This document shows, piece after piece, positions 4,068-31,564 of a DNA stretch of 32,000 nt; the stretch's first letter is position 1, and the number at the start of each line of letters is the position of its first letter. The position numbers and the translations under genes were made by a program. Below the pieces are notes generated by a model that ran no database searches, was not told the DNA's origin, and saw only the letters and a list, made by a program, of their open reading frames with translations. The DNA is from Candidatus Thorarchaeota archaeon (lineage in GTDB: Archaea > Asgardarchaeota > Thorarchaeia > Thorarchaeales > Thorarchaeaceae): contig SHMX01000003.1 in NCBI GenBank assembly GCA_008080745.1, positions 1 through 32,000 on the forward strand, written 5' to 3'.

Positions 4068-5144
4068 CTATTTCCCTCCCTGAGCTGTGGGAGCTACTTC
4101 CCAGATTCCTGAGAGCTCCTTGAGTACATCTTTGATGCTGATATCACTGGGACAAGCGGCGGTACAACGACCACAACCCGTACATCCTAGAATGCCTTGA
4201 TCATGGGCAAAACCTCTCATCTTATGATAGAATCGATACTTGAAACGAGCTGCAGGTGACTCTCTAAAATTATGTCCACCAGCAACAAGTGCGAACTCTT
4301 GGAATAAGCAAGCATCCCATTTCCTTGTTCTATCTGCAGATGTTAGGGAGAGATCAAGGTCATCCACCACATCATAACAATAACAGGTTGGACAAACCAT
4401 AGCACATGCACCACAATTGACACAATCCTCTGCCATTTTATCCCAAAATTCATGATGGAATGATAGGTCAAGATATTCATTGATACCTTCAACATCTACC
4501 TCATGTGGTAATGACTCATTCTTGTGCTTGAGGGCTGCTTTGAATGCTCCAAAGTCTTCTGGTCCTGCCTCTTGGAAAATATCTCTAGCCATGTGAACTA
4601 GATGTTCACCTTTAGCAGTACCAACTTGTACATAGTATCTATCTCCAGATATTGGAGTCAAGAAGAGGTCATAACCTTCAACAACATGATGGGTATTCAT
4701 TGATCGACAGAAACCATATTCACAAGAATCTAAACAATTTATTCCAACAATAGTGGTTTTCTCCCGTCGTGCGAAATAGTATTTGTCTGTATATTCTCCG
4801 CCAAATACTCTATCAAGATGCAGAATTCCGTTAAGGTCACAGGAATGCACTGCCATCAATAAACGAGGACGCATTGCACGAAGCTCGTCTAGGGTATCCT
4901 CAACTTTATTTTCCTCAAGGTCAAAACTCATCATGACCTCGTTCTGCGGTTGGAAATATTTGCGAGGGGATAGAATGGTGCTATCATAATCCATGACAAG
5001 ATTGTCAGGATTATCTATCTTCCCGAAAACGTGCTTACTCCTTTTCTTTACTGGTCCGAATACATCATACTCGTTTGACGCAGCCTCTACGAGCTTTTTG
5101 ATGTCGGTCCGCTTCATTACATAGGGTGGACTCATAATTATCAT
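4068..5144 (-). CDS. hydB: Group 3b hydrogenase beta subunit (AsrA-like 4Fe-4S dicluster protein)
   Basis: CVNCGACAMVCPTCYC, WDAC and CTGCGRCTAACP. Its stop abuts the hydG ATG. Confidence 0.94.
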   Translation of the reverse strand: MIIMSPPYVMKRTDIKKLVEAASNEYDVFGPVKKRSKHVFGKIDNPDNLVMDYDSTILSPRKYFQPQNEVMMSFDLEENKVEDTLDELRAMRPRLLMAVHSCDLNGILHLDRVFGGEYTDKYYFARREKTTIVGINCLDSCEYGFCRSMNTHHVVEGYDLFLTPISGDRYYVQVGTAKGEHLVHMARDIFQEAGPEDFGAFKAALKHKNESLPHEVDVEGINEYLDLSFHHEFWDKMAEDCVNCGACAMVCPTCYCYDVVDDLDLSLTSADRTRKWDACLFQEFALVAGGHNFRESPAARFKYRFYHKMRGFAHDQGILGCTGCGRCTAACPSDISIKDVLKELSGIWEVAPTAQGGK

Positions 5145-11800: not shown

Positions 11801-12150
11801 GTAGAAACAACCAAAGTCATCCCTAGTAGGACGTGAAGTCCAAGAGCTATTGTAGCAAAAGAAGATATTGTCATGTATGCAGCTATACATGCCATACCTG
11901 AACCAGCTAAAACAGCCACTGAACCAATATATCGATGATTAATTCGATTCAGTAATAGTCCAGCTAACATTACTCCTACCGAGAGCGACACTAACATCCG
12001 TATAGAGTAGTCACTGATAATAGGTACAGTAATGAAAAATGTAGCTAAAAGTACCGCAAGGGGTACAATAATTACCAATATTATGAACCTTAATACCGCT
12101 AGTAAGAGATCGGCCAACCTAGCGGCGCGTACTGTTCGATGGTCGTCCAT
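5863..12150 (-). CDS. Giant (2095 aa) polytopic membrane protein of unknown function
   Basis: Uninterrupted 6.3-kb ORF made almost entirely of hydrophobic helices (well over 40 by eye) with short loops. GAGG precedes the ATG. No catalytic motif recognised. Confidence 0.85.
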   Translation of the reverse strand: MDDHRTVRAARLADLLLAVLRFIILVIIVPLAVLLATFFITVPIISDYSIRMLVSLSVGVMLAGLLLNRINHRYIGSVAVLAGSGMACIAAYMTISSFATIALGLHVLLGMTLVVSTSLNRNENLTESTWLNIQKGLGILIVLTGPLFVYILTFNLFSPLHSVFLALITLSAYLLITQVVLRNKILGPIISVILSVGLGLILVEQSRVLYPMIDLLLYLSVFSMGTGLSLLATTRILRRFQLRVISQIPMTPPIVSNSSLVKEGNFEPHAETHTTKEDPLHIKMEAAEWIIDVELAQILAAFGLLLIALGTPTVFIFLTSQTSWGLVSQFIPLFAPLSIMISLLILMPFPVYLRLGGTLKRSFEGIIVRIFGTMVVITAALSLYLWTQFYLFPIALSISFSSMTFLAGITGLFKRVRRVFRTIWESFTNAFRRMKYWVKQHILISGTALNVIFTGTIAYLLYPLFLSFNHPFMGLAALSGVIFAGCGTLGVGALTKLKRRGQLLSIGSVCFLASLSALILWYLIGPIAMNIGEALPIALLLMLATSALQKNGVSLRKTSIPYLPGFVGGLWISWNIQATYLSIISPLVIIVALVLLPIPVAHPGYIRVGHILIGAGIRFGRWIHAGLILVGNKIKNGVVRIISVIRRGLGWIGSTIKNGFTKAGKVAYDAAVVAGQILLKFIFISWAVFSIFLCLSLGYGVLIPYLGMSFIPTAFVLGCCFFILYLGMLVKIDRPSPILTQASVVGLSIATGGLVYTYVALVNPISQILIASISSMGILLLGRNEFSESISTALPVIGYSLILAAVTNEFYLLVSPLMSTIHAILLTSIASGIGATGYRVIGLPKRVVGGMYIGLSAIPAVLFTYMITLDLILSGLVCILAPIPYAYSLYIRTLQTIGTTILVGIKQIVKFINRNAVPFFGAVFFGLTYYVASSTYTSLLQMGFDILIIGSLYMVLFTILWIPILHIKKEQYPSLLTGVFLLFVGTISFEIITYMNPPDPIVAILGWVCLVSLFSMLGSSEIHISGSVIPAFIATITASTVLGIYLLPIDILSKIILLSIETILLGAFFVPREKRIIVSYTLVITLTLAVIFWNLLSILRDPVLVGLGFLVFEMASLSMPKELRKSYTWWGFSILVGLGMYYLLQGFGIFAVLASVLVVSELIRITPSKDNDLSNLSIAFSLVRSSILAVGTGLLILPVSLVLSIEVAAFVFILMNLLSIWSELSDLILVGSINGVAILSSIAIFHFFYDILLAPFGISLYISAIPVLLILLDVSLVEKYHTIGWGLFGITLSTLVSLVWYLLGISSSPILFITTWTTTFLLTQIRPIGQDMKSGIVVQSFVVSSIIWLESIWISYSYPILPFTGVVAGAAGLSLLSLFGLYLHSVKWENFSHIWEIQTGITSILLAAYITGWEYTTLIPPANISGTLGVSLFLMSLLTTPVFLKYESQLRTHSNSSAGHMTLLPGIAGAALLTYSAGSYLEWNPIFGLFATSAVLCIGSGLYYLTLPEQPSWMPSALNLGFASSMAGLFWLARFSLEPVSYAIWTFAFWYILAIPSLIDPTIRFIEHSADFIRRNIFFFSSTIPPILGILIATALFSNTSGGLVLGLNIRSTIGFIATIYLITGILYLVANTILSLEDGIRLRTPSGVLFVFGLYQAILYFVIPDIFTDILSLGYQVGAVVVLSCVISYPVFSFNHLESMKKTAHWLISFTLIPTVSIGTLLFTTINIAYSIIAGLVVGLMVMAPLIPNQIQRIINVVKNLGSLLGQLLRDFTGTLRYLFDRFGYIMWGVFSSAFTITIAVFSFPFFSELVAMPPTGSLYVVPSISLPMSILGMMLLVIAIIRRQVKTSFGSVSLFLISIGLGATTASWLTEYGEFLLAGSLGILALSIAGLVVISEADKTQKWRTIFWVPIPAALGVILLDRLLIAAVTLDIQILVFTLSVLATSVLYTISTSLGYLPKKLGNPLWITKSISLGVIVYIASQLATFSLVASGYLTIVMASIVLFPVIGKDSKYVFFSLLFFGVTGFAYTSVFGIFLQSLMLALAVSFLFFALFIREKEKDNPNLVYLRLVVLIALVASIAIFGGTIALGLMVS

Positions 12151-16576: not shown

Positions 16577-18157
16577 ATGGGAGATTATACCGAACTAATG
16601 GGTGCTGCTGGGGCAGGTCATCTGGGGAATGTTGAACGATTGCTGAAAATGGGTCACGATCCAAATGCTAGAAGATTGTCAGGGAGAACACCGTTGATGT
16701 ATGCTGTGTTTAGTGGTTCAGTTCCAGTTGTGAAACGTCTGATTGAAGCTGGAGCGGACATTGATACTCAAGACAACGACGGATGGACTGCATTAATGGT
16801 TGCAATTGACCAGGGATATGAAGAAGTGGCGAAGATTCTCATTGAATTAGGTGCTGATGTAGACCGATCAACAAAAAGAAATCAGTCTCCACTCATGTTA
16901 GCTGCTGGAAGAAAACAACTTGATTTAGCTCGGTATATTCTCCAAAGTGGAGCAAATCCTCATCATGTAAGAGTAGATGGTTTCACGGTTTTGATGTCAG
17001 CCTGTCAAGGCAATCTCCTGCAACTAGTCCAAGATCTTATTGGAAAATACCAATGTGAGATAAATGCCACCGCAAATGATGGATGGAATGTCTTATCTTA
17101 TGCTCTTCAGTATGCAAGTGATGATTTGGTCATATATCTGATACAGAACGGAGCTAAGCCAAACTGGAATCACCCTAGCCAAGAAGAATTGATTACTGGA
17201 ATCATAAAGAGTCAGAAAACCAATCTCATCAGACTCATGCTTGAAAATGGAGCGGACATTGATGCGAAATTTGACAGGGGTTGGACACCACTGATGATTG
17301 CCGCTAGATTTGGAGATGAAGATATGGTCAAACTATTTCTTGACCATGATGTGGATATAAACGCAAGAACAGAGGAGGGATACACAGCACTCATGATTGC
17401 AGCGGAATTTGAAAGACCCCAATCAATAGATTTACTTCTTGAATATGGAGCAGATTTCAGAATAATAAGTGATACAGGATATACATGTCTAATGGCGGCT
17501 TCAATGGGTGGAATGAAAGAGTTTGTGCAATTTCTGATTGATAAAGGAGAAGATGTGAACCAAAGAAATCATGTGGATTGGACAGCACTCTTTTGTGCAG
17601 CAAAGATGGGAAATCGGGATGTCTTAGATCCTCTAATAGAAGCTGGTGCGAAAATTGACTTGAAGGATACAGATGGACAAACTCCTCTCTTCATAGCAAT
17701 AATGTACGATAAAGTGGAGTTTGCACTACGATTGATTGAAATCGGTGCGGATGTTAATATTATAGATAATGATGGTTGGTCACCACTAATTGCTGCCGCA
17801 TCACATGGTCAGCATGAGGTGTGCAACAATCTGATAGAGAAGGGAGCAGATACAAAACATCGAAGACCTAATGGGTATGGATTGTTTCTGGCAGCATCAA
17901 CAGGAGGTTTGACTAGTCTTGTCAAACGAGCACTCGAAGAGGGCAGTGAAATCAATGAAACAGATGAAGAACAGATTTCTGCGCTCATATATGCTGCAGA
18001 GAACGGTAACCTTGACACTGTGAAATTTCTGATTGAGAATGGTGCAGATCCAAATCTTACAGATGGAAATGGTCATACGGCATTAGAATGTGCCCGAGCT
18101 ACAAGAGAAAATGCAGTAGCTGAGTTCTTAGAAGGATTAGAGAGCAGACCAGATTAG
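16577..18157 (+). CDS. Ankyrin-repeat protein (15 full 33-aa repeats plus a partial C-cap)
   Basis: Recurrent G-x-T-[PA]-L-M-x-A...G...L[IL]xxGAD[IV][ND] units counted by hand; GGAGG RBS. Confidence 0.95.
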   Translation: MGDYTELMGAAGAGHLGNVERLLKMGHDPNARRLSGRTPLMYAVFSGSVPVVKRLIEAGADIDTQDNDGWTALMVAIDQGYEEVAKILIELGADVDRSTKRNQSPLMLAAGRKQLDLARYILQSGANPHHVRVDGFTVLMSACQGNLLQLVQDLIGKYQCEINATANDGWNVLSYALQYASDDLVIYLIQNGAKPNWNHPSQEELITGIIKSQKTNLIRLMLENGADIDAKFDRGWTPLMIAARFGDEDMVKLFLDHDVDINARTEEGYTALMIAAEFERPQSIDLLLEYGADFRIISDTGYTCLMAASMGGMKEFVQFLIDKGEDVNQRNHVDWTALFCAAKMGNRDVLDPLIEAGAKIDLKDTDGQTPLFIAIMYDKVEFALRLIEIGADVNIIDNDGWSPLIAAASHGQHEVCNNLIEKGADTKHRRPNGYGLFLAASTGGLTSLVKRALEEGSEINETDEEQISALIYAAENGNLDTVKFLIENGADPNLTDGNGHTALECARATRENAVAEFLEGLESRPD

Positions 18158-18500: not shown

Positions 18501-20027
18501 TCAGCCGAGCAAAAACGTAGCCGCTTCTACAGCATAATCCAACAAGATCCCAGGCATAATAAACAGAATAAGAACAGCTATGCTAGAAATTATGACCGCA
18601 ATCATTGGGATTCGGGGCAGATTCAGTTCATTAGCAGAATCGTCAGTACTCTTAGTGGAATGATCTCCATCCATGTACATCACTTTCAAGACACGAAGGT
18701 AATAACCCAGAGAGAAGACAGAATTTAGGAGAGCAATCAGAGCTAACCACCACATTCCTACTTCAACTGCACTCTGAAATAATATCAACTTTGACCAAAA
18801 TCCAGCAGTCAGGGGCATCCCAGCTAATGATAGAATAAGGACCGAAAAAGAAGCTGCTGCCATAGGAGCTTTTTTGCTAAGACCAATCAGATGATCATAT
18901 GTGATTTGCTTTCCAAGAACCACTGCCATGGACCAAATGAGAATGAAGCTACCAGTCTTCATTATTGCATGAATGAAAGCGTGAAAGAGAGCCGCTGCGG
19001 TTCCCAACTCGGTCCCTACCGCCATTCCAATTAATAGATACCCCATCATCGCGATACTGGAGTATGCTAACATTCTCATGATGTTTTTCTCAGCAAGTGC
19101 GAACAAGTTACCAATTATCATGGTCAATATTGAAACGATGACTAAGAGCGGCATCCATTCGATTCGAGCTGCAAACATTCCAACCATCAGAATCTGAATG
19201 AGTGCTGCAATACCTGCCTTCTTTGTAGCACCAGCAAGGTAAGAAGTGACACTGCCATCTGCTGTACTATAAGTATCAGGCACCCACATCCAACCAGGAA
19301 ACACGCCAATCTTAAACCCGAATGCAATGATGAACGTAATCAGAGCTAAAATGATAGTGTATGCCGCAGCAGGTGATGTTGCAGATTCCAACCAGATGGT
19401 GCTAATAGATGCTCCGACGGCAGATAACGACGTAACACCAGTGACACCAATAATGATTGCAATTCCAAATATCAGGAAGGTAGTTGAGAGTAGACCCATT
19501 ACGAAATATTTTGTTGCCCCATCTACAGCTCCTCGATGAGGACCAAGGGCTGCCAGTATATACGTTGGAGTTGACATCAATTCCCATGCTATGAAAAGAG
19601 CAACAAGATCCGTAGCCATTACAACCCATATAGCTCCTGCAAAGGACATTAACAAGAGAAAGTTGTAAGGCCCCTTATCACCTCCAAAAAGGGTAGAAGA
19701 CATTAGGACAAAAACAGCTACGACAAGAATCATGATGATAAAGAAATCTGACATGGGATTCCGGACAAAGAGACCACCAAAGGAACTTCCATAAAGTGTA
19801 GAATCAAAAACTAACATCCAAACTCCAGAAGTGATAACCCCAATAAAACTTAGCAAGAGAGGATTCCTTTTCATCCCCACTAATAGAATCAAGAGGGAAA
19901 AGCCGACCAGATTGAGAGCTGGCAGAGATCCGATCCATTCTACAGGAATGACTTGAAGTGCAATATCCCGAAGAGGAGCCAAGGCAAGTCTAAGTGAGTC
20001 TAAAATAGTTGATATTTGTATCATCAA
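18501..20027 (-). CDS. nuoN: Complex I-like antiporter subunit N
   Basis: FIAWELMSTPTY, KYFVMG, GFKIGVFPG..WVPDTY, RMLAYSSIA, GFWSKL and YYLRVLKVMY. Confidence 0.9.
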   Translation of the reverse strand: MMIQISTILDSLRLALAPLRDIALQVIPVEWIGSLPALNLVGFSLLILLVGMKRNPLLLSFIGVITSGVWMLVFDSTLYGSSFGGLFVRNPMSDFFIIMILVVAVFVLMSSTLFGGDKGPYNFLLLMSFAGAIWVVMATDLVALFIAWELMSTPTYILAALGPHRGAVDGATKYFVMGLLSTTFLIFGIAIIIGVTGVTSLSAVGASISTIWLESATSPAAAYTIILALITFIIAFGFKIGVFPGWMWVPDTYSTADGSVTSYLAGATKKAGIAALIQILMVGMFAARIEWMPLLVIVSILTMIIGNLFALAEKNIMRMLAYSSIAMMGYLLIGMAVGTELGTAAALFHAFIHAIMKTGSFILIWSMAVVLGKQITYDHLIGLSKKAPMAAASFSVLILSLAGMPLTAGFWSKLILFQSAVEVGMWWLALIALLNSVFSLGYYLRVLKVMYMDGDHSTKSTDDSANELNLPRIPMIAVIISSIAVLILFIMPGILLDYAVEAATFLLG

Positions 20028-21541
20028 GGTACACCTCCAACAATGAAGTCTGTTGACGTTCGTATAAGATCTAAAATAAGATCAGGCCAGACTCCAAGAA
20101 GAATCACGGGAATCAACATGATAATAGGAGCTATAAGGTCTGACCACGGAGCATCAACAACATCCTTCTCAGGGTCCGGATCACTGAAAACGATTCGATT
20201 TAGTGTCCAGAGTAAATATCCAACCGTGAGAAAAATACCAAAGGCGATCACTGGAGCCCATATGTAGACCACTACAGCTCCAAATAATATCAATGCCTCT
20301 GCTACAAAACCGCTCAGGCCTGGAAGACCAAAGGCAGCAAAAGATGCTAGTATCAAGACCGTTGACATCTTAGGAGCCCTTTCCATTAACCCATGAATCT
20401 CTGGAATCTCCCGGGTTCCTGATGCATGCTTGAGTTGTCCAGCCATGATAAACATCACAGAGATTATCACGCCATGAGATACCATCATGAATACAGCCCC
20501 TTGAATAGCCAAGCTGGTGCCTACCGCAACTCCAAGAAGGACCCATGCCATGTGATTGATGGAAGTATAGGCAACCATTGATTTCATGTCGGTCTGAGCC
20601 AATGCTGTAAAGGCTGCATAGATACAAGTGAATATCGCAAGAATAGCAAAGGGAATACTTAGTCTTACAAAAGCGTCAGGAATAAGCCAAAGACCCAATC
20701 GAATGAAACCATATCCACCCATTTTCAAAAGAATGCCTGCAAGAATAACTGAACCAGGCGTGGGGGCTTTCACATGAGCCCATGGAAGCCAGTTGTGCAA
20801 TGGAAACACTGGGAGTTTCACGCCAGCACCCATAAAAATAGCGAGCGCGAATCCGATCTGAATATCTGCTGGTAGCCCCATCTCTCTAAGTAATAGCATG
20901 TTGAATGTATTGGGAGTTGATACAAAGAAGAGAACGAAGAATCCAACTAGCATCACTGCGGAACCAAGATGAGTATAGATGAAGAATTTGACCGCTGCGT
21001 GTTCACTGCCTTCTTCACCCCAACGACCGATGATGAAAAACATTGGTATCAGAACTAGCTCCCAGAATATGAAGAATCCAATCAAATCCAGTGACATGAA
21101 TACCCCTAAAAGTCCGGATTGGAGTAGGAGTAAGAGTGCATAATACAGTCCTTTTGATTTGTTAATGTGATTCGAACTGATTGTTGCGATAAACACAACT
21201 AGATTAGCGAGGATAACCATTGCTACAGAAATTCCATCAACACCAAGATAAATCTGAAATGTGATATCTGAGCTACCAGTAGATATAGTTGCGAAAGTAT
21301 ACTCCCATAGAAATTGCATTCCAGCAAAAGAGTCGCCTTCAGTGTAGGTGGTGTTGATTGTTAAGGCGAGGATAAAAGCTAAAACGAGTTCTATGAAGGT
21401 AATGATAAGAGTGATGAAACGTGACCCTCTCGACCCGGCGATATAAGCGATGATTGTACCCAACAAGGGTAGAAATACCATTAATGGGAGTATATCATAT
21501 GGTAAAAGGGCTAAGATGTCTTGAGCTAGATCCAGTTGCAT
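20024..21541 (-). CDS. nuoM: Complex I-like antiporter subunit M
   Basis: GVDGIS, FFIFWELVL, VKLPVFPLHNWLPWAHVKAPTPGSVILAGILLKMGGYG, SHG and GFVAE. Confidence 0.92.
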   Translation of the reverse strand: MQLDLAQDILALLPYDILPLMVFLPLLGTIIAYIAGSRGSRFITLIITFIELVLAFILALTINTTYTEGDSFAGMQFLWEYTFATISTGSSDITFQIYLGVDGISVAMVILANLVVFIATISSNHINKSKGLYYALLLLLQSGLLGVFMSLDLIGFFIFWELVLIPMFFIIGRWGEEGSEHAAVKFFIYTHLGSAVMLVGFFVLFFVSTPNTFNMLLLREMGLPADIQIGFALAIFMGAGVKLPVFPLHNWLPWAHVKAPTPGSVILAGILLKMGGYGFIRLGLWLIPDAFVRLSIPFAILAIFTCIYAAFTALAQTDMKSMVAYTSINHMAWVLLGVAVGTSLAIQGAVFMMVSHGVIISVMFIMAGQLKHASGTREIPEIHGLMERAPKMSTVLILASFAAFGLPGLSGFVAEALILFGAVVVYIWAPVIAFGIFLTVGYLLWTLNRIVFSDPDPEKDVVDAPWSDLIAPIIMLIPVILLGVWPDLILDLIRTSTDFIVGGVP

Positions 21542-23737
21542 TTAGATTACCCCCAGCCAAATTAGTGCAATAATCGCCATCAACCCCACACCAAAAATAA
21601 TCACCGAAACATAATCATTGATCCTACCCGTTTGGGCATGGAGACTGACTTCGGAGGCATCAATACTTCTAGAGGAAACACCCTCGGCAAATCCATCAAC
21701 TACATTATCATCAAACCAGCGAATTCGCCTAGATAATCCTATAGCCAGATCTGCTGAACGAAAGTCAATTCCATCTATAATACGATTGTCAATCTTTTCC
21801 CTCCACCAACTGGCAAAATTGAGGAATTTGTTCAGAATCCAATAATATCCCTCATTGATATACCAACGATGTTTCAAGAAATCGTAGATCTTTCTTTTGA
21901 TGCCCTTTTCTGGAATGATAGTGTTGCCCTTTTCAGCCCCTTTAATGTAGATGAGATATGCGGGAAATCCACCAATAGCTAACGCACCTAATGTAATTGT
22001 AAATGGAATCAGACCAGGTAAGGTCAGCTTCACCAATAACATTTCGACCATCGTATCTGACCAGAGAGATAGTGTAAGTGCACCTTCCTCCAATAGTATC
22101 CCCTGAACAAATGGATATATTGCAAATGCAATGATAGTAAATGCAGCAAGTATGTAAAGAGGAATCATCATAGCTGGACCAGGATCATGAGGTGCTTTAT
22201 GGCTCTCTTCATGAGTTTCTTGTGAGTGAGATGCATCAGTATCTTCAAACTTTGATGATCCGTAGAAGGTCATTCCCATTAGCCGTAAACTGTAGAAAAT
22301 GGTACATGCTGCTGCAATAACAGCAAATGAAAAGAGAATCCAACCAATTGGCTCATGCAGTGCTAGCTCATAAGTGTATTCGATAATCGAGTCCTTAGAC
22401 CAAAATCCAGAGAAGGGAGGGATTCCAGCTAACGCTAGAACGCCAATCCACATAACAATGAAGGTCTTCCGCATATGTTTTTTGAGACCTCCCATCTTCG
22501 TCATGTATTTGGTGTGTAAGGCATGAATCACCCCTCCTGATGCCAAGAATAGTAACGCTTTGAATGCCCCGTGACTGATTACGTGAAGAATACTTGATAG
22601 GTAGGCATGTTCGTAATGGGCCAATACACCGCCCACTCCAATTGCCAACATCATGTATCCCAATTGACTAAGGGTTGAGAATGCAAGCACCTGTTTCAAT
22701 TCATTAGAAACCATACCCATTGTAGCTGTCATTAGTGCAGTAATCGCTCCAACGATGGCCACTATTGTGAAAAAGGGTATTGCAGCCTCAAATCCAACGA
22801 TCTGTAAAGGATTGAAGAACGACTCCGCATGACTTGAGCCAGCTGCATCCACCATGGTGACTAAAAATCGAGCACTGATGTAAACACCCGCTTTGACCAT
22901 TGTTGCAGCATGGATAAGTGCTGAAACTGCGGTAGGCCCTGCCATAGCCTCAGGGAGCCATATTTGTAGAGGAGCTTGACCAGATTTTCCGATTGCGCCC
23001 ATAAACAAGAGTAAGAAAGTTGGAACCAACATTCCAGTGGTGGCCATTGCACTCCACCAGTGCTGAGCATCATGGGACATACCAGTGAAGGAGAAAGTTC
23101 CAGTGAATACGAAGAGAAGTAGAATGCCAGCGAGCATGAAGGCATCACCAATACGAGTTACAATGAATGCCTTTGTTCCACAATGGGTATTGTATTCTCC
23201 TTCAGTGTCAAATTGTAAGAGGGGGTTATTATATTCAACATCAGTTGGGTCTGTTTCAGGGGGATTCCGCTTATCATTCCAAAAGCCAATGAGGCCATAA
23301 GAACAGAAGCCCATAATTTCCCAGCCGATAAAAGCAATCAGCAGACTATCACTCAGAACCAATGTGAGCATTCCTCCACCGAAAGCCAACATCAAGAAGA
23401 AGAATCGATCTCGGTCCTCCTCATGGGCCATGTATTCAGTACTATAAACGTAAATCAAAAAACAGAGGGTGCTTGCAAGTACCCCCATAATGATAGATAA
23501 TGGGTCTAATAGTATTGTGAAGTTCAGATTTAAAGAATCAATCCAAATCCAAGAAGTAATAGTAGCGGGGTTGTTAATCTCAAACAATAGAGACCAACAA
23601 AGAATCATTGATAGGCCCATGAATAACGATGGAGTCCAATCCCTTAGTTTCTCGTTGAATCTTCCAATCACTGGTACTAATAGAGAGCCCGCTAAGGGTA
23701 GAACAATGATGAGATAGTATGGTAGTCCAAATAGCAT
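21542..23737 (-). CDS. nuoL: Complex I-like antiporter subunit L
   Basis: DPLS, YSTEYM, FIGWEIMGFCSYGLIGFW, GKSGQAPLQIWLPEAMAGPTAVSALIHAATMVKAG, HGAFKALLFL, GFWSKD, plus the C-terminal lateral helix and final TM. Confidence 0.93.
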   Translation of the reverse strand: MLFGLPYYLIIVLPLAGSLLVPVIGRFNEKLRDWTPSLFMGLSMILCWSLLFEINNPATITSWIWIDSLNLNFTILLDPLSIIMGVLASTLCFLIYVYSTEYMAHEEDRDRFFFLMLAFGGGMLTLVLSDSLLIAFIGWEIMGFCSYGLIGFWNDKRNPPETDPTDVEYNNPLLQFDTEGEYNTHCGTKAFIVTRIGDAFMLAGILLLFVFTGTFSFTGMSHDAQHWWSAMATTGMLVPTFLLLFMGAIGKSGQAPLQIWLPEAMAGPTAVSALIHAATMVKAGVYISARFLVTMVDAAGSSHAESFFNPLQIVGFEAAIPFFTIVAIVGAITALMTATMGMVSNELKQVLAFSTLSQLGYMMLAIGVGGVLAHYEHAYLSSILHVISHGAFKALLFLASGGVIHALHTKYMTKMGGLKKHMRKTFIVMWIGVLALAGIPPFSGFWSKDSIIEYTYELALHEPIGWILFSFAVIAAACTIFYSLRLMGMTFYGSSKFEDTDASHSQETHEESHKAPHDPGPAMMIPLYILAAFTIIAFAIYPFVQGILLEEGALTLSLWSDTMVEMLLVKLTLPGLIPFTITLGALAIGGFPAYLIYIKGAEKGNTIIPEKGIKRKIYDFLKHRWYINEGYYWILNKFLNFASWWREKIDNRIIDGIDFRSADLAIGLSRRIRWFDDNVVDGFAEGVSSRSIDASEVSLHAQTGRINDYVSVIIFGVGLMAIIALIWLGVI

Positions 23738-23748
23738 CTTATTTCACC

Positions 23749-25257
23749 TCATGGAATAAGCCCACTCACTCCCTCTAACCCCGCAAATATGATATCCACT
23801 GCGATACCGGGAAAGATTCCAAAGAACACGATCAACACAGCAAGTACCACCATGGGAATGACCATCGATTGTGGTGCCTCTGAAGTGTCTTCAAGCTCTC
23901 GTGGATGAGGGCCAAGAAAGACCTTCCAAAGAAACCGGAGCATATACCCAGCACTTACAATTGAACTAGTAACTGCCAAGATACTTAGAAGAATAAATTC
24001 AGGTCGTAGAATAATTGCGCCGGATATCTGTGCAGCATCGAAGCCGCCTAGAAACATCATCCACTCACTAGCAAAACCAGAAAGGGGTGGACTTCCAGCT
24101 ATACTTAGGGCACCAATTGCTGCTGTAAATGCAGTAAGAGGCATTTTATTTGAGAGACCCCCCATTTTCGTGATATCACGTAAACCAGTCTGATGAATGA
24201 CTGCTCCGGCGGTCATAAACAGCAACCCCTTTGAGAAAGCATGATTGATAAGGTGAAATAGCCCCCCAGTGACACCTACGGTTGTATAGACACCGAGAGA
24301 GAAGAGTATGTATCCCATCTGAGAAACTGAAGAATATGCTAGGAGTCGTTTGATATCTATCTGTGCCAGTGCCATAAAACCGCCATAGAACATCGTAAGG
24401 ACACCAATAGCTGCAATCCAGAATGCTAGAGCAGCGGCAGCAGGTCCGAGTAAAATAGTACCAAATCTCACTAATGCATAAGCACCAGTTTCAATCATAG
24501 CTCCAGATAGAAGAACCGAGATGGGAGTTGGAGCTTCGGCATGAACAGGGGGTAACCACCAATGTATTGGAAAGACTGCCATCTTTACCAAGAAACCAGC
24601 AGCCATTAGAATAAAGATAATCTTGAGTAAATCAGTAACAGTGGAGCCCATTAATGTATCTTGGATAGTTTGTAATTCAAATGATCCCGTAAGCATGTAA
24701 AGTAGTCCAAATCCAACAAGGATACAGAGAGCACCTGATTGAGTATAAAGCCAAAATTTCAGTGCAGTTCTCTTTCTTGTTTCCGGGAGACCCCAGAATA
24801 AAATGAGGAAGTAACTTGGAACCAGCATTATCTCCCATGCAATAAAGAATTCTATGAGATTCGTTGCAAGAACAACCCATTGCATACCCATAAGGAAGAA
24901 GAGTTGATTTGCAAAGAAAGTTGGTCTGTTCTTGGTGTGTTCAGTATATCCTACAGCATATACTACTGAGAGAAAACCAAGCACAACAATAGCAAAAACT
25001 ATGGGAAATGAGACACCATCAAGAAACAGTCCGAATTCTCCAAATACTTCAGACCATGTAGCTGACTCTTTCACAACACTTCTTTCAACTATAATTCGGT
25101 AGAAGGGGGGGAGCATGAATACTAAGGATAAAAATGAAAATCCTACCGCAACCTTTCCTGCTGAGTGTTCAAGCTTAGACTTTAAGAGGTAGATTAGTAA
25201 AGCACCTATGAATAGAACGGCCAATGAACTTGCCATGAAGGGCATTTCGATTTGCAT
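23749..25257 (-). CDS. Additional (fourth) antiporter-like subunit, NuoM/MrpD/HyfB family
   Basis: LDGVS, FFIAWEIM, VKMAVFPIHWWLPPVHAEAPTPISVLLSG, KRLLAYSSVSQMGY, NHAFSKGLLF and GFASEW. Preferred start is ATG 25257 (TAATG overlap with the nuoI stop, AGGAGG RBS); the ORF track gives 25281. Confidence 0.88.
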   Translation of the reverse strand: MQIEMPFMASSLAVLFIGALLIYLLKSKLEHSAGKVAVGFSFLSLVFMLPPFYRIIVERSVVKESATWSEVFGEFGLFLDGVSFPIVFAIVVLGFLSVVYAVGYTEHTKNRPTFFANQLFFLMGMQWVVLATNLIEFFIAWEIMLVPSYFLILFWGLPETRKRTALKFWLYTQSGALCILVGFGLLYMLTGSFELQTIQDTLMGSTVTDLLKIIFILMAAGFLVKMAVFPIHWWLPPVHAEAPTPISVLLSGAMIETGAYALVRFGTILLGPAAAALAFWIAAIGVLTMFYGGFMALAQIDIKRLLAYSSVSQMGYILFSLGVYTTVGVTGGLFHLINHAFSKGLLFMTAGAVIHQTGLRDITKMGGLSNKMPLTAFTAAIGALSIAGSPPLSGFASEWMMFLGGFDAAQISGAIILRPEFILLSILAVTSSIVSAGYMLRFLWKVFLGPHPRELEDTSEAPQSMVIPMVVLAVLIVFFGIFPGIAVDIIFAGLEGVSGLIP

Positions 25258-25688
25258 TACCTGAACCTCCTTCCTCGCCATTCTAACGGTTCTCTATCTA
25301 ATGTCGTAATTTCATCCGGTCCATAAATCAGGTCTTCTCTGTTTTCAGCACTGATATCGACAACTTTAGTATGATAAAGCGCATTGAATCTACAGGCCTG
25401 AACACATAAACCGCAGAAAATGCATCGTGTATAGTCAAAATAGAGAGCGGCATCCTTGTTGTATTTTTGATCCATAACATCAATCCTGATTGCTACGACC
25501 GGACAGACACGTACACATTGTTTGCACGCTGTGCAATTTTCTCGCACATGTATATGTCTTCCACGGGTACGTTCAGGGTATTCTCGATCTTCAAAAGGAT
25601 AAAAGTATGTGAAAGGTCTCTTGAAAATCTGTCTGAACACATGCCTTAGAATTCTGAAGATATCGCCTAGTGTTGAGAAGAATCCCAT
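25257..25688 (-). CDS. nuoI: Complex I-like subunit I (2x[4Fe-4S])
   Basis: T..YPFE...RGRH, CTACKQCVRVCP and CIFCGLCVQACR. Confidence 0.92.
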   Translation of the reverse strand: MGFFSTLGDIFRILRHVFRQIFKRPFTYFYPFEDREYPERTRGRHIHVRENCTACKQCVRVCPVVAIRIDVMDQKYNKDAALYFDYTRCIFCGLCVQACRFNALYHTKVVDISAENREDLIYGPDEITTLDREPLEWRGRRFR

Positions 25689-25693
25689 TCATA

Positions 25694-26824
25694 TCAACCT
25701 CCAATCATCAGTAACCCAGCTAATCCGGGCAGATACACAATAGCCAGCATGGCAAGTACGACATTGAGTATCGAAAGTGGCAGTAGATATTTCCAACAAT
25801 ATTCTACAATCTGATCAGGTCTCAATCTATAGAAAGAAGATGTGACCACGATATAAAGGAAGAACACTATCAAGAACTTGATAATGAAGTTCATAGCAGG
25901 GGGTAGGAACGGAAGTCCGTGAAAGCCTCCAAGGAATAATGCAACCATCATAGCACTGTAAAGCATCTGTTCTGCAAATTCAGCAAAATACGTCATGGTG
26001 AAATAGATTCCTGAGAATTCAGTTCGCCATCCAAAAATGATTTCTGAATCAGCCACAGGGGAATCAAAAGGAAAAGTACCTACAGATGCAATTGAGCTTA
26101 CCATAAATGTAGCTAAATTGATGGGTAACAACACAACAAACCAAACATTACTCTGGGCTTGAGCAATGCCCATCAAACTAAGAGAACCAGCCAGAAGTGT
26201 CGGACCAACTGAAGAGATAATCATTGGAATCTCTGCTGCGAACTGATTGTTGGCTGCTCTGAATCCACCTATTAGAGAATACTTGGAACCTGAAACCCAT
26301 CCTGCAAGAAGAGCAATCACTGGTACAGCAGTTAAGAATGCAAAAATCAGAACCAAGCTTACAGATAGATCAGCAATGAACCAAGAGGGAGACCAAGGTA
26401 TGAAAGCAAAGGGTAAGAGCACAATTACCAAGAGAAGGCATGGAAGAAATCTAAACATCCAGCGTTTTGCTTTATCAGGAATTATGGTCTCCTTTGAAAC
26501 TAGTTTAATCGCATCTGCGAAGAGTTGAAAACCACCATATTTGCCAATATGAGTAGGACCTCTCCGATCTTGTATTCTGCCCCACATCTTTCGTGTGAAC
26601 CAGACTGCAAAGATAATACCTAGCACTATGAATACCAAGCCTGGGAATATGATAGCTCTGAAGAGGAACCAGAAGTTTCCAACCACTGCTGCCCATACAA
26701 ACACAAAGATACCCCAGACGCCATTAAATATCCAGACTATGATTCCATGCAACCACATGATTATATCGTATAACCAAGTAGGTATTCCAGCCAACCATTG
26801 GAAGAAATCTATCTGCAACGTCAC
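25694..26824 (-). CDS. nuoH: Complex I-like subunit H with long N-terminal extension
   Basis: RKMWGRIQDRRGP, GGFQLFADAIKLVSKE, KYSLIGGFRA, PFD.P.A..E...G..TEFSG and R.RPDQ...CWK. GTG start with a GGAGG RBS. Confidence 0.92.
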   Translation of the reverse strand: MTLQIDFFQWLAGIPTWLYDIIMWLHGIIVWIFNGVWGIFVFVWAAVVGNFWFLFRAIIFPGLVFIVLGIIFAVWFTRKMWGRIQDRRGPTHIGKYGGFQLFADAIKLVSKETIIPDKAKRWMFRFLPCLLLVIVLLPFAFIPWSPSWFIADLSVSLVLIFAFLTAVPVIALLAGWVSGSKYSLIGGFRAANNQFAAEIPMIISSVGPTLLAGSLSLMGIAQAQSNVWFVVLLPINLATFMVSSIASVGTFPFDSPVADSEIIFGWRTEFSGIYFTMTYFAEFAEQMLYSAMMVALFLGGFHGLPFLPPAMNFIIKFLIVFFLYIVVTSSFYRLRPDQIVEYCWKYLLPLSILNVVLAMLAIVYLPGLAGLLMIGG

Positions 26825-26832
26825 GCTTCCTC

Positions 26833-27966
26833 CTATCTATCCCACCATCCAGGATATGGATCTAGACTGCCAAATATCACAATGAAATCAGCAAACTTGT
26901 TTCCGGGGACAAGATGCTTCAATGAATAATACGAGTTGAAACAAGGACCGCGTATCTTTGCACGATAAGGGGTCTGTGCTTTATCCATAGTTCTAAGATA
27001 GAGTGATGTGACTCCTCTTGTTCCCTCCACACGTCCATAAGCTTCTCCCTCAGGAAGTCGATTAACTTTGCCACGAGCTTTTCTTTCGTAAATTTCACCC
27101 TCGGGAACTTGGGGTAACAATTGACGAATTATATCTACTGAGGTCTCTATTTCTAAAAATCTCTGAACCATCCTGTCATAAGCATCACTCTCACCAGGAT
27201 GATCTTCATTGGTATAGGTGGGAACTTCCCAGTCAGCCATATCATAAGTGAGATTTTCATCTGGAGAATCCTTTCTGAGATCCATTGGAACACCACAGGC
27301 CCGGATATTTGGTCCACTGATTCCCCAACGCAATCCTTGGTTTGCATCAAATCGACCTATTCCTTTAGTTCGTACTTTGAATGTGGGACTTCTCAGTAGC
27401 ATATCACGAAACTTGGGCATCCGCTCTTCCAGACGTTGAATGGCTCTATCTAACTTGGACAGAAATTTATCTGTAAAATCGTACTTCACTCCCCCCGGAG
27501 TATTATAGGATACAGCATGTCTAGACCCAGTCAATTCTTCAAAAGCATCAAGGAAGAACTCTCTGTCAACCCAAGGCCAAAGTAGCATTGTAAATAATCC
27601 TAGTTCTGCTGCGAATTGCCCCCACCAGAACTGGAGACTATGAATTCGACTCGCTTCCATCATAATTGTTCGCATGATTTTAGCACGGTCTGGTACATCT
27701 ATTCCAGCAATTTTCTCAACTGCTGATACATACGGATATTCAGCAAGAAATGCCTCAAGCATGCAAAGCCGTTCCATTATTAGTGCGCCCTGCCGGAAAT
27801 CTCTAAACTCTAAACACTTCTCAGCAGATCGATGGAAATAACCAGCATTGGGATCACATTCCACTATGTAATCTCCTACTAGCGTGAGTTTTGCTGCCCA
27901 GCCATGCGCTGAAACGTGCTGAGGACCAAACCAGATTTCAGTTGCCTCTTCAAGAACGTCTTTCAC
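26833..27966 (-). CDS. nuoD: Complex I-like subunit D (49-kDa family; not a NiFe catalytic subunit)
   Basis: FGPQHVSAHG, GYFHRSAEK, EASRIHS, EELTGSR, GEAYGRVEGTRG and PYRAKIRGP. Both Ni-binding CxxC pairs are incomplete (RLCMLE; DPYPGWWDR). Confidence 0.9.
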   Translation of the reverse strand: MKDVLEEATEIWFGPQHVSAHGWAAKLTLVGDYIVECDPNAGYFHRSAEKCLEFRDFRQGALIMERLCMLEAFLAEYPYVSAVEKIAGIDVPDRAKIMRTIMMEASRIHSLQFWWGQFAAELGLFTMLLWPWVDREFFLDAFEELTGSRHAVSYNTPGGVKYDFTDKFLSKLDRAIQRLEERMPKFRDMLLRSPTFKVRTKGIGRFDANQGLRWGISGPNIRACGVPMDLRKDSPDENLTYDMADWEVPTYTNEDHPGESDAYDRMVQRFLEIETSVDIIRQLLPQVPEGEIYERKARGKVNRLPEGEAYGRVEGTRGVTSLYLRTMDKAQTPYRAKIRGPCFNSYYSLKHLVPGNKFADFIVIFGSLDPYPGWWDR

Positions 27967-28493
27967 TCGTCCTCACCTCCCTCTGAGGGTCCGGGACGTC
28001 GTTGAGTTAAGCCAGATTCATGGATTCTACTTCTATCAATCTCAAAACTTTTCCTCAAAGGGAATTCTCCCTTCAATTCATCTGGAAGTAGCAATAATCT
28101 TAGGTCTGGATGCCCGGAAAAATTAATTCCAAACATCTCATGAGTTTCTCTTTCATGCCATTCCATGCCGGGAAATATATCAGCTATAGTAGGGACTTCT
28201 GGAGAATCAGCTGGCAGCTTGAGAACTATCTTACAAAGAACTCTACTATTTCGAGACCAGAAATAATAGATAATTTCAAACCCATCTTCTTCAAAATCAA
28301 TACCTATTAGATTTTCAGGAAAGATATCCGAATACAGTCTATCTAGCATCTCAACAAGTTCTCTAAGCTGTTCCGGAGTAATACGAATTTGGACGGTTTC
28401 TTTTCCGATGGCTCGAGTTTTGATGGTATCATCTACCTGTTTCAATTCGTGAATCAGTAAGGCTCCAGATTTTCCTTGTTCTGAATCAGACAC
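27963..28493 (-). CDS. nuoC: Complex I-like subunit C (30-kDa family)
   Basis: PTIADIFPGMEWHERETHEMFGINFSGHPDLRLLLLP...FPLRKSF. Confidence 0.92.
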   Translation of the reverse strand: MSDSEQGKSGALLIHELKQVDDTIKTRAIGKETVQIRITPEQLRELVEMLDRLYSDIFPENLIGIDFEEDGFEIIYYFWSRNSRVLCKIVLKLPADSPEVPTIADIFPGMEWHERETHEMFGINFSGHPDLRLLLLPDELKGEFPLRKSFEIDRSRIHESGLTQRRPGPSEGGEDE

Positions 28494-28806
28494 CTGTAAT
28501 CTCCTCCTGTCTTACTGGTTGTCCAAGATCTACAGTTCCATATCTACGATGATACATTAGCATGAGGACCATTGCAAGAGCAGTATGTGCAGCTGCTATA
28601 GCTATGATAATGATAGTTAGACCTTGACCTGTGAAGGTGAAAGGAGAATTGTAGAGAGCAAGAGCTACCAATGCGATGGTCACTCCATTGCCAATTATTT
28701 CTGCCCCAATGAGTACTCTGATGAGATTTCTTTTCACCATCATCCCGTATACTCCAAGGCCAATTAGTATGAAAGCCAAGACCAAATACCACGAAAGTGG
28801 AATCAT
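28486..28806 (-). CDS. nuoK: Complex I-like subunit K
   Basis: Three TM helices, GLGVYG...KRNLIRVLIGAEII.NG...GQ...IAAA. Confidence 0.9.
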   Translation of the reverse strand: MIPLSWYLVLAFILIGLGVYGMMVKRNLIRVLIGAEIIGNGVTIALVALALYNSPFTFTGQGLTIIIIAIAAAHTALAMVLMLMYHRRYGTVDLGQPVRQEEITGV

Positions 28807-29414
28807 TGTTCTTCCTCCTGGGTTTCAGTATATGCTGGATGTGTTTCTGCCTCGATACCAAATTCACCTTTTATAGGTTCGAGACGTTCAGCCTTCTCCA
28901 TCTTCATAATCACAACGGCACCCACCAAAGCAGTGAGAATTATTAGCGCCGTCATTTGCACATATATTCCATGAGACCCCCATAGCCATTTAGCTAGCTC
29001 CTCTAGATTTTGGGAGAGATTGATATTTTCGCTAACAAAGCTTTCAGGCCATGGGAACAAGAGGGCTAAAATTCCAGAGAGAATCATCACAACTGATGTA
29101 ATCAGAACACCAATACGTTTTGCCCGGGATGTTGGAAATACTTCAAGAGTGCTATCCTGTGCACGTGGGAGCAATAACACACCAAAGATAATCAACGCAC
29201 TTATTCCACCAGTATAGACAGCAATTTGCATTCCAGCAATAAATGGTGCTTCTAGAAGCAGATAGAAGCCAGCGACAACAGAAGCCATCATGCCAAAGAA
29301 AAATGCTGCATAGACAATATCTTCGTGTTCTAAAGCAAGATATGCAAGTATTAGTACTAATCCAGCTAGCAGAATGAATTCAACCTGTTCAAAGAGGGTT
29401 TCAAAACCTTGCAT
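28803..29414 (-). CDS. nuoJ: Complex I-like subunit J
   Basis: IVYAAFFF...VAGFYLLLEAPFIAGMQIAVYTGGISALIIFGVLL, and C-terminal WLW...LTALVGAVVI. Confidence 0.9.
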   Translation of the reverse strand: MQGFETLFEQVEFILLAGLVLILAYLALEHEDIVYAAFFFGMMASVVAGFYLLLEAPFIAGMQIAVYTGGISALIIFGVLLLPRAQDSTLEVFPTSRAKRIGVLITSVVMILSGILALLFPWPESFVSENINLSQNLEELAKWLWGSHGIYVQMTALIILTALVGAVVIMKMEKAERLEPIKGEFGIEAETHPAYTETQEEEQ

Positions 29415-29417
29415 TCT

Positions 29418-29858
29418 CTAAGCCTCCTCATGTGCCGAAGATGATTTACTCGATGCCCTAGCCTTCTGATACAGTTCTACCGTTTCAGAACCTGAAAGGT
29501 ATGTTTCGGGAAGTCTTTTGATAACATACCATATTCCCACCATAAAAATTCCAGTGAAAAGAATGAATTGCCAGACAGTAATTTCTGTGAATCGCAGAGA
29601 AGATGATGATAGTAACCATAGAAATGCTCCTAGAACATCAACGACAAGAAAGAGTATCGTATAGGTCAAATAGTTATAAGGAAAGGAAACTCGTGCCGGG
29701 CCAATGGGTTCCTCACCACACTCGTAAGTAGAGGTCTTTTCTGAATTCTGAAGCACATGTGGTCGTAATACCCAAGATGCAAAGAGCATTACAATTACAA
29801 GGACAGCGGCAAGCATAGCCCAGATTAGAACTGGGATGAAGTCGATGAAGAGCCTCAT
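29418..29858 (-). CDS. nuoA: Complex I-like subunit A
   Basis: KTSTYECGEEPIG.A...Y..Y.ILFLVVDV. Preferred start is ATG 29858 (GGTGG RBS); the ORF track gives GTG 29876. Confidence 0.9.
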   Translation of the reverse strand: MRLFIDFIPVLIWAMLAAVLVIVMLFASWVLRPHVLQNSEKTSTYECGEEPIGPARVSFPYNYLTYTILFLVVDVLGAFLWLLSSSSLRFTEITVWQFILFTGIFMVGIWYVIKRLPETYLSGSETVELYQKARASSKSSSAHEEA

Positions 29859-29899
29859 TTTTTCCACCAAGTGCACACATTTCTCATATGACCAAGACT

Positions 29900-30407: not shown

Positions 30408-31412
30408 CTAGCTATCATCTTCTAATGGTGAGAACTGCACTATTGCCCAAGTGATATCGGTTGAAATAACTGGAAGACCATCAATCCCAATATCAAAGAT
30501 CTCGCTTGAAACAGTTGGTTCTACCGACGAAACATCTTCAAACAGGATTTGAGTTTCAAGCAATGGTGAAGACATGGATAGTAATCGGTTCTTGAATCCG
30601 AATTCCATATTGTGTTCTATGAGAACATCTGCATTGGCATCTCCATTATCTGGAAAGAAAAATGTAAGAAAGTAAGCTACACCACCAAGACATCTTACCA
30701 ATTCATTGAGAAATTCTTCACTACTGGTTATATTGGTCAATCCCATATTGGTCGTAATGACCTCTACTGATTTTTCTTTGAAAGGCATCTTTCTAGCATC
30801 AAATGCAATAAGGCTTACTTTCTCATAGATACCGAAATGCTCCAATCTATCCTTATTTCTCTGAAGAATACTTGGACTGATATCACTCAAGATGACAGGA
30901 TTTTCCAATTCAGAGAATAATTCAGCGAATCCACCCATTCCAGATGCAATATCAATAATGACGCCTGTTTTATCAGAGAGTAATTTTTGTAGCTGTGTTT
31001 TCTTTTCTTGATATGCTTGAGTATAAGAACTAGTATATAGGTCCCTCACGGCTTCAGCTCTAATTTCTCTTGCAGTATCATAGTCTCCTCGCTCATCAAG
31101 AATCATTGAATGTAAGAGTTTGTCTGCGGGATTCAAATTATCCAAATCAGTTTGCATGAGTTTTCGTTCATATTCAGGATTGCTACGCAATGCCTTTGAT
31201 AGATTACTTTGCACAACTTTCCAAAAATCTTCATCATTTGATGCATCTAAAAGAAAAATAGCAATACCATTCTTTACAAAATAAGATTTATGACATGCGA
31301 TACAAGAAACCTCAGCATCAATAATCCGATGATCTGTTTCTTTTTGAATATCCCATGCTAAAGAATCATGACAGATAGGACAATAAAGCAAATTTTGAAT
31401 AGATTTTAGCAT
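30408..31412 (-). CDS. Class I SAM methyltransferase with N-terminal Trm112-like Zn-knuckle
   Basis: LLYCPICHDSL...CIACHKSYFVKNGIAIFL, motif I IIDIASGMG, LSDISP, and FDARKMPFKEKSV. Preferred start is ATG 31412; the ORF track gives 31502. Confidence 0.85.
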   Translation of the reverse strand: MLKSIQNLLYCPICHDSLAWDIQKETDHRIIDAEVSCIACHKSYFVKNGIAIFLLDASNDEDFWKVVQSNLSKALRSNPEYERKLMQTDLDNLNPADKLLHSMILDERGDYDTAREIRAEAVRDLYTSSYTQAYQEKKTQLQKLLSDKTGVIIDIASGMGGFAELFSELENPVILSDISPSILQRNKDRLEHFGIYEKVSLIAFDARKMPFKEKSVEVITTNMGLTNITSSEEFLNELVRCLGGVAYFLTFFFPDNGDANADVLIEHNMEFGFKNRLLSMSSPLLETQILFEDVSSVEPTVSSEIFDIGIDGLPVISTDITWAIVQFSPLEDDS

Positions 31413-31564
31413 GAATATCAAAGATTGAAGATATTCGAAATCTAAAATAGATTTACAACTAAGCAAAATAAAGAAAATAGCCCATTCTATTTTAGAAAAC
31501 AATTCAGTAATTCACTCGTAAAGATTAAGAGGGCTCGTTAATAATTCTAATTTGAGATTTGAGA

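Follow-up and report, generated by a model that had tools for sequence, protein, structure and literature searches.

A complex I-like operon with four antiporter-like genes and a lengthened NuoL lateral helix in a Thorarchaeota-type Asgard archaeon

Does a lengthened lateral helix in NuoL mean that the membrane arm of a complex I-like enzyme holds a fourth ion pump? The question is raised by a nuo operon on contig C3 (SHMX01000003.1) of a Candidatus Thorarchaeota archaeon (assembly GCA_008080745.1; genome of 3.16 Mb, 98% complete). The first 32 kb of this contig (32,000 nucleotides [nt], positions 1 to 32,000) constitute the stretch of DNA analyzed here and are referred to as the window. The operon comprises 11 tightly packed genes on the minus strand, read from 29876 to 18501 in the order A-J-K-C-D-H-I-M'-L-M-N (Table 1). 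Four of these genes (M', L, M, and N) encode antiporter-like, or pump, subunits, and the lateral helix of NuoL is lengthened by one 26-residue unit. The closest homologues of this NuoL are proteins from Thorarchaeota metagenome-assembled genomes (MAGs), with 65 to 85% identity. We consider it probable that the operon encodes a four-pump, complex I-like ion pump of the published 2M type, lacking NuoEFG, in which the lateral helix is one unit longer to match the fourth pump.

The four antiporter-like genes named in the initial annotation were recovered by PF00361, which matches all of them (nuoN via the genome scan), and NCBIfam gives NuoL and NuoN as the best-fit subfamilies for L and N. M' exceeds the cutoff of TIGR01972 (NDH_I_M), with 312 bits versus 263.8, as does M with 439 bits, and thus stands as a second NuoM-type gene inside the nuo cluster. 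The longest M' open reading frame (ORF) begins at 25281 (PF00361 match, 23749-25281). The start at 25257 that had been annotated is nevertheless likelier, as its ATG overlaps the nuoI stop codon in the form TAATG and is preceded by GGAGG 8 nt upstream. The gene junctions (a 1-nt overlap of I and M', an 11-nt gap between M' and L, abutting L and M, and a 4-nt overlap of M and N) indicate translational coupling. With respect to channel residues, M' retains the Glu of transmembrane helix 5 (TM5), the TM7 Lys, the TM11 His and Lys, and the M-type TM12 Glu. At residue 264, the TM8 channel lysine is a glutamate (MIETG), a substitution shared by 8 of 9 M' sequences and 5 of 14 NuoM sequences from Asgard three-pump operons. 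The best matches of M' among solved structures are the MrpA pump core (7qru_A; E value, 2e-60), MbsH' (6u8y_X), and MbhH.

The origin of M' was approached with a FastTree phylogeny of 84 pump subunits, in which the L, M, and N types resolve as separate groups. The window M' clusters with the first-position genes of loci L026, L040, and L047 (support, 97), and this clade sits among the NuoM proteins of Asgard three-pump operons, apart from M. The window M and N fall in separate clades, together with the M and N of four-pump operons and of locus L048. Because the tree places M' in another NuoM clade, M' is, at the level of FastTree, not a recent tandem copy of the neighboring M; it appears to be either an old duplicate or a paralogue that was recruited. 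It could also be supposed that M' is not a stoichiometric subunit at all, being instead an alternative isoform of M or the partner of another membrane arm. The genome does hold, on contig C5, a stand-alone J-K-L-M-N arm that lacks adjacent redox genes, and M' groups with the NuoM proteins of such arms. However, that arm possesses its own M, and M' is coupled between nuoI and nuoL, a slot that is kept in 12 of 12 Thorarchaeota operons as well as in L026, L040, L047, and L052. M' is also the pump subunit with the highest conservation among the 12 Thorarchaeota operons (mean identity of 73%, compared to 70% for L, 67% for M, and 58% for N). We therefore regard an isoform or a subunit of another arm as quite improbable.

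The second element of the proposal is the motif pair in the NuoL lateral helix. As the initial annotation had noted for nt 21692-21793, IDNRIIDG (residues 649 to 656; nt 21793-21770) recurs as FDDNVVDG (residues 675 to 682; nt 21715-21692) exactly 26 residues later. The two 26-residue units that begin with these motifs align with a BLOSUM62 score of +11, compared to -24 +/- 12 in 20,000 shuffles (P = 0.003). An offset of 26 is the top self-similarity offset in a profile of 78 Thorarchaeota homologues (z = 2.0) and again in 23 diverse homologues of equal helix length (z = 3.8). The double motif at 26-residue spacing is present in 113 of the 120 closest (Thorarchaeota) homologues, and D655, D676, and D681 are at least 90% conserved in an alignment of 44 sequences. 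In bacterial homologues, F-D-x-x-V-V-D-G-x-V-N repeats, two or three in number and with the same spacing, stand out much more clearly. A recurrence due to chance or to the composition of an amphipathic helix, devoid of structural meaning, would be compatible with the identity of only 5 of 26 positions and with our finding no DNA-level similarity between the two units, but the shuffles, the two independent profiles, the conservation, and the bacterial repeats leave very little room for it. As the likeness is confined mostly to the first 8 to 10 residues and was not found in the DNA, the pair appears to be an old repeat unit rather than a recent duplication.

Alignments provide a possible role for the motif. 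Canonical solved NuoL and NdhF chains have one such motif. In cyanobacterial NdhF1, it matches the first copy, with the canonical spacing to the upstream W-Y-x-(D/N)-E anchor; in mycobacterial NuoL and chloroplast NdhF, it matches the second copy, with the canonical spacing to the Q-T-G that lies before TM16. The unit with the second motif aligns with R562-N566 of Escherichia coli NuoL, where P564-N566 form a helix kink that contacts NuoM (PMC3274701). Since the motif aligns with this NuoM-touching segment, we infer that it may be a contact site for a pump subunit. Elsewhere in the window NuoL, loop insertions relative to the solved NuoL and NdhF chains occur at residues ~154 to 186 and 293 to 320 (e.g., NDKRNPPETDPTDVEYNNPLLQFDTEGEYNTHCG) and are conserved in Thorarchaeota homologues.

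For comparison among operons, helix length was taken as the distance between two anchors, RWY (upstream) and QTG (before TM16). This distance measures 78 residues in the window NuoL, compared to 52 in a three-pump paralogue from the same genome, a protein of 671 residues belonging to the J-K-L-M-N arm on contig C5. Alignment of the window protein with E. coli and three-pump NuoL proteins likewise yields a gap of 26 residues, so that the helix is longer than that of three-pump operons by exactly one unit, as had been proposed. In an AlphaFold2 model built from 44 sequences (model mfd8507060a06), the lateral helix (HL) is single and continuous over 74 residues (625 to 698). The difference between the window NuoL and its paralogue fits one 26-residue unit, which would amount to ~39 A if helical.

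We then asked how helix length relates to pump number within the same phylum, using 40 NuoL-homologue loci chosen for family spread before the helix was inspected, with subunits called by BLAST against the window proteins. Together with the window and the C5 paralogue, these make up a set of 42 loci. Anchor distances of 25 to 26 residues occur in two operons with two pump genes, distances of 51 to 53 in 19 operons with three, and distances of 77 to 79 in 16 operons with four (the window, 12 Thorarchaeota orthologues, L026, L040, and L047). Helix length thus tracks pump-gene number in these Asgard loci, in agreement with the link drawn in the initial annotation. The one-unit helices of the two-pump operons, which contain L and N only (L043:5149-7143 and L044:8192-10234), extend the length quanta downward. 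In the NuoL tree, 17 archaeal four-pump NuoL proteins, all with helices of 77 to 79 residues, group in a single clade (support, 98) within archaeal NuoL, indicating that the archaeal lineage of the window acquired the four-pump state once. A bacterial horizontal origin of the window NuoL was considered and rejected because the protein nests inside this archaeal clade.

In 150 diverse cluster representatives, helix lengths gather at 25 to 26, 50 to 54, 77 to 81, and 104 residues. Outside the Asgard phylum, gene content was assessed in a sample consisting of 80 named loci from species genomes plus contigs obtained by exact protein look-up, restricted to clusters flanked by at least 2.5 kb on each side; P0158 and P0169 were left out, as their contigs are too short to display the operon. 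The simpler regular-expression rule failed or took a false upstream anchor in about one-quarter of bacterial NuoL proteins and was replaced by a rule that demands flanking hydrophobic helices, under which 17 loci were unmeasured and excluded. Helices of 52 to 59 residues were found at 25 loci with three pump genes and at none with four. Four-pump loci account for 3 of the 18 with helices of 78 to 85 residues (the archaeon L052 and the Nitrospira loci L072 and L078). In an 86-locus table, the operons with fewer than four pumps include 46 with a short helix, and every four-pump operon sampled (21 of 21) has a helix of at least 78 residues, none having 52.

A number of observations weigh against a simple equation of the longer helix with a fourth pump. 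Outside Asgard archaea, 15 of the 18 loci with helices of 78 to 85 residues have three pump genes, and one locus (L049; L049:10001-12124) combines a 104-residue helix with three. In the 86-locus table, 19 loci, most of them bacterial, have a long helix and fewer than four pumps. Two genomes, a Zixibacteria MAG and a Udaeobacter MAG (G201 and G205), hold just two three-gene operons each and no spare pump gene. Within Asgard archaea, L041 and L042 have 106 residues with four pump genes, L048 has ~105 with three, and a genome-wide scan counts only three pump genes in G184 (helix of ~105; 84% complete). The 21-to-0 count of long over short helices among four-pump operons is itself inflated by kinship, corresponding to about three independent four-pump origins in the sample. 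The NuoL tree shows 3 changes of the four-pump state and 11 of the long-helix state; because the four-pump state arose only about three times, a kinship-aware test of independent pairs had 2 to 3 usable pairs and cannot reach significance. In addition, all trees were made with FastTree only, the helix-length measure depends on regular-expression anchors, and pLDDT (predicted local distance difference test) is only 50 to 68 over HL, though the window NuoL model averages 77.6. The paralogue model, with helices at residues 595 to 624 and 629 to 645 (two pieces spanning 51 residues), has a pLDDT below 50 in this region and supports an approximate length only.

The three mismatched Asgard lineages (L041/L042, L048, and L035/L036) were inspected further, and whole-genome scans explain part of these mismatches. 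L035 and L036 have 80-residue helices with an L-M pair standing alone: a NuoL and an M-type gene lie away from other nuo genes (L035:5732-9387 and L036:6944-10599), and the remaining two pump genes of the genome are on a different contig. In the scans, G061 has four pump genes, which are dispersed, and G011, one of the two L041/L042 genomes, has an orphan pump gene (G011:C2:124626-125576) that is possibly a fifth subunit. The L041 and L042 operons (L041:8076-10376 and L042:6954-9254) have the order B-C-D-H-I-J-K-M'-L-M-N and three motif units in the helix. In bacteria, a three-unit helix with only three pump genes was seen at L053, L054, L057, L059, L061, L063, L066, L067, L070, L071, L077, L083, L084, L119, and L124, and L049 has four units. 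The lineages involved are Zixibacteria, Ignavibacteria/Melioribacter, Acidobacteriota, Udaeobacter, and NC10, in operons without NuoEFG. Because long-helix NuoL proteins made up the query alignment behind the bacterial sample, the proportion of long helices in it is not representative; this bias does not account for the mismatch as such.

The rival explanation that these cases favor is that the extra helix unit serves a purpose other than M', with M' located elsewhere, for example distal to L. The unit might extend beyond NuoN across the small subunits or hold some other partner. Besides the 19 long-helix loci with no fourth pump gene in the cluster and the two genomes devoid of a spare one, L041 and L042 carry one unit beyond what four pumps need. 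Yu et al. describe the same mismatch in Ca. Manganitrophaceae, where Complex_I_1 and Complex_I_2 have one nuoM and a lengthened NuoL helix (PMC9040806). Set against this rival are the 17 of 17 four-pump members of the window's archaeal clade at 77 to 79 residues, the 19 of 19 three-pump operons of the sister-group Asgard archaea at 51 to 53, and the lack of any four-pump operon with a short helix; moreover, an M' distal to L would require no lengthening. On balance, we judge another purpose for the extra unit unlikely. A long-enough helix looks to be needed for a four-pump arm but is not a sufficient sign of a fourth pump. The initial interpretation is therefore only partly supported: the matched helix and fourth pump hold in the lineage of the window, whereas the double motif alone does not predict a fourth pump, because many long-helix loci have three pump genes. 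Outside the lineage, the outcome that the initial annotation had named as refuting its proposal does occur, with 15 three-pump loci to 3 four-pump loci at helix lengths of 78 to 85 residues.

How does this operon compare to known systems? The 2M complex I of Chadwick, Hemp, Fischer, and Orphan (2018, ISME J 12:2668) is described here as presented in the citing papers PMC6606698, PMC7117926, PMC7300363, PMC9040806, and PMC7419157. In those papers, it is defined by a second NuoM together with a lengthened NuoL, the helix insert being taken as a sign of the extra subunit's incorporation (PMC6606698 and PMC7419157); for the length of this insert, PMC9040806 states 26 residues. Examples mentioned there are Nitrospira CI_1 (clade 3), the Chloroflexi nuoL-M1-M2-N arrangement, and, among archaea, heterotrophic marine Thaumarchaeota (clade 2; PMC7300363). 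The window operon shares the fourth NuoM-type gene, the 26-residue helix extension, and the lack of NuoEFG, and the fifth translocated ion proposed for 2M enzymes would be a further likeness. It differs in that M' lies upstream of L rather than between L and N, in that M' and M come from different NuoM lineages, in that the likely NuoB is encoded outside the operon, fused to an FAD-linked oxidase, and in that the host is an Asgard archaeon. The four-pump, long-helix design has already been published, and the window locus is a clear new example rather than a new type of machine. Our literature search found no paper naming Thorarchaeota together with NuoM and no solved 2M complex I structure; the Asgard papers that were found discuss only shorter arms.

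Three other systems are related to a lesser degree. The single-nuoM, long-helix operons likewise carry the 26-residue D-x-x-V-V-D-G unit two or three times but have three pump genes only, whereas the window matches its extra unit with an extra pump gene. Canonical three-pump enzymes (E. coli NuoL/M/N, cyanobacterial NDH-1 [6hum], and the C5 arm) have subunits of the same families, with the same channel residues and the same clamp formed by the helix and TM16; they fall short of the window, with its four genes and three units, by one motif unit (52 versus 78 residues between anchors) and one pump subunit. The Mrp antiporter has the principle of the helix brace in common with the window NuoL (PMC7419157 describes MrpA helix HL as bracing MrpD), its MrpA pump core is the best solved match of M', and the two-pump Asgard operons recall it with their one-unit helix. 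In contrast to Mrp, the window operon has no MrpB domain and no MrpE/F/G genes but does have NuoC, D, H, and I, and Pfam found no Mrp-specific families in the operon.

The core set A, B, C, D, H, I, J, K, L, M, and N is complete in the genome, with ten members in the operon and NuoB elsewhere; Pfam detected no nuoB in the operon. The genome carries five NuoB-like domains. A 646-residue fusion of FAD_binding_4, FAD-oxidase_C, and a NuoB domain is encoded 6.7 kb upstream, on the same strand and in a separate operon, with a TPR gene, a histidine kinase, and a methyltransferase between it and nuoA. Judging from its domains, this fusion likely supplies the NuoB of the operon. Most Thorarchaeota relatives have a NuoB-like gene with a long N-terminal extension immediately upstream of nuoA. 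The window NuoD has no Ni-binding CxxC motifs (RLCMLE; C terminus, DPYPGWWDR) and so lacks the CxxC pairs that mark the NuoD-like subunit of a group 4 [NiFe]-hydrogenase (Mbh/Ech type). Its paralogue on contig C11, on the other hand, carries RICGIC and CFSC. The A-B-C-D-H-I cluster on C11 was considered as the redox half of a second complex I and rejected, since its large subunit holds both CxxC pairs; by this token, it is a predicted [NiFe]-hydrogenase module. This module and the C5 arm may belong together.

Table 1. Coordinates, strand, and basis of assignment of the features discussed; positions refer to the window unless a contig or locus is given
Feature	Position	Strand	Basis
nuoA, first gene of the operon	29418..29876	-	PF00507, E 1e-18
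nuoJ	28803..29414	-	PF00499, E 2e-22
nuoK	28486..28806	-	PF00420, E 2e-19
nuoC	27963..28493	-	PF00329, E 8e-30
nuoD	26833..27966	-	PF00346, E 3e-63
nuoH	25694..26824	-	PF00146, E 3e-87
nuoI, 2x[4Fe-4S] ferredoxin-type subunit	25257..25688	-	Fer4 families
M', extra M-type antiporter-like subunit	23749..25257	-	PF00361, E 8e-73; TIGR01972, 312 bits
nuoL, 731 residues, lengthened lateral helix	21542..23737	-	PF00662 + PF00361; TIGR01974, 472 bits
Lateral helix HL of NuoL, residues 625-698	21644..21865	-	AlphaFold2 helix H625-698
Unit with first motif IDNRIIDG, residues 649-674, missing in three-pump NuoL	21716..21793	-	Repeat analysis, alignments
Unit with second motif FDDNVVDG, residues 675-700	21638..21715	-	PDB alignments; E. 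coli NuoL alignment
TM16, anchor helix after HL, residues 707-727	21557..21619	-	AlphaFold2 helix H707-727
nuoM, start abuts nuoL stop	20024..21541	-	PF00361; TIGR01972, 439 bits
nuoN, last gene	18501..20027	-	PF00361 (genome scan); TIGR01770, 289 bits, below cutoff of 332.6
FAD-linked oxidase-NuoB fusion, outside the window	G000:C3:36560-38500 (L008:4560-6500)	-	Domain content
Predicted six-gene [NiFe]-hydrogenase module A-B-C-D-H-I	L007:2303-6436, contig C11		Motifs RICGIC, CFSC
J(split)-K-L-M-N arm	L006:10657-16685, contig C5		Subunit matches

Several neighboring genes complete the description of the window. Adjoining nuoA is a gene for a UbiE/COQ5-family methyltransferase of 364 residues (30408-31502, minus strand), which may be linked to quinone synthesis. 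Convergent with nuoN is a gene for an ankyrin-repeat protein of 526 residues, nearly all of them in repeats (16577-18157, plus strand). A four-gene cluster at 1169-5144 (minus strand) resembles a soluble [NiFe]-hydrogenase and consists of genes for a Fer4_22 protein, an FAD/NAD-binding protein, a NuoB-like small subunit, and an NiFeSe large subunit. Finally, an ORF of 2,095 residues (5863-12150, minus strand), situated in a stretch with strong AT skew, gave no Pfam match at an E value of 1e-5.

Taken as a mechanism, the reading that we prefer would be as follows. The operon of this Thorarchaeota-type Asgard archaeon would encode a complex I-like, ion-translocating oxidoreductase of the 2M type that lacks NuoEFG, with a membrane arm holding four antiporter-like subunits, L, M', M, and N. 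The lateral helix would be built of 26-residue units, each starting with a motif of the D-x-x-(I/V)-(I/V)-D-G type, and the extra unit would add ~39 A if helical, such that the lengthened helix and its TM16 anchor could still span all subunits from L to the small-subunit end. Given the alignment of the motif with the NuoM-contacting segment of the E. coli helix, the two motifs may fit the two middle subunits, M' and M. M' would be a functional M-type pump module derived from the NuoM lineage found in Asgard three-pump operons, and the expected consequence would be one extra translocated ion per cycle.

A bolder version, which we offer tentatively and hold to be possible rather than probable, treats the helix as a modular ruler. 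Its quanta (~26, 52, 78, and 104 residues) would cap the number of pumps without counting them, each 26-residue unit carrying the contact motif for one pump subunit. The Thorarchaeota complex would then have recruited M', from a different archaeal NuoM lineage, under the added unit, giving a five-ion machine fed by a NuoB-fused flavoenzyme. Under such a ruler, the bacterial mismatch would point to an unknown partner or to a clamp over the small subunits.

For annotation, these results advise caution: a lengthened NuoL helix alone is no proof of a fourth pump, because most bacterial long-helix cases have no fourth pump. The four-pump complex I enzymes gain an Asgard (Thor-type) lineage with this locus, which comes with a clean internal control in the form of a three-pump arm from the same genome whose helix is exactly one unit shorter. 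If the proposed four-pump arm is correct, the complex translocates an additional ion in each cycle, or requires an additional one when running in reverse, which would bear on the membrane energy balance of energy-limited sediment archaea.

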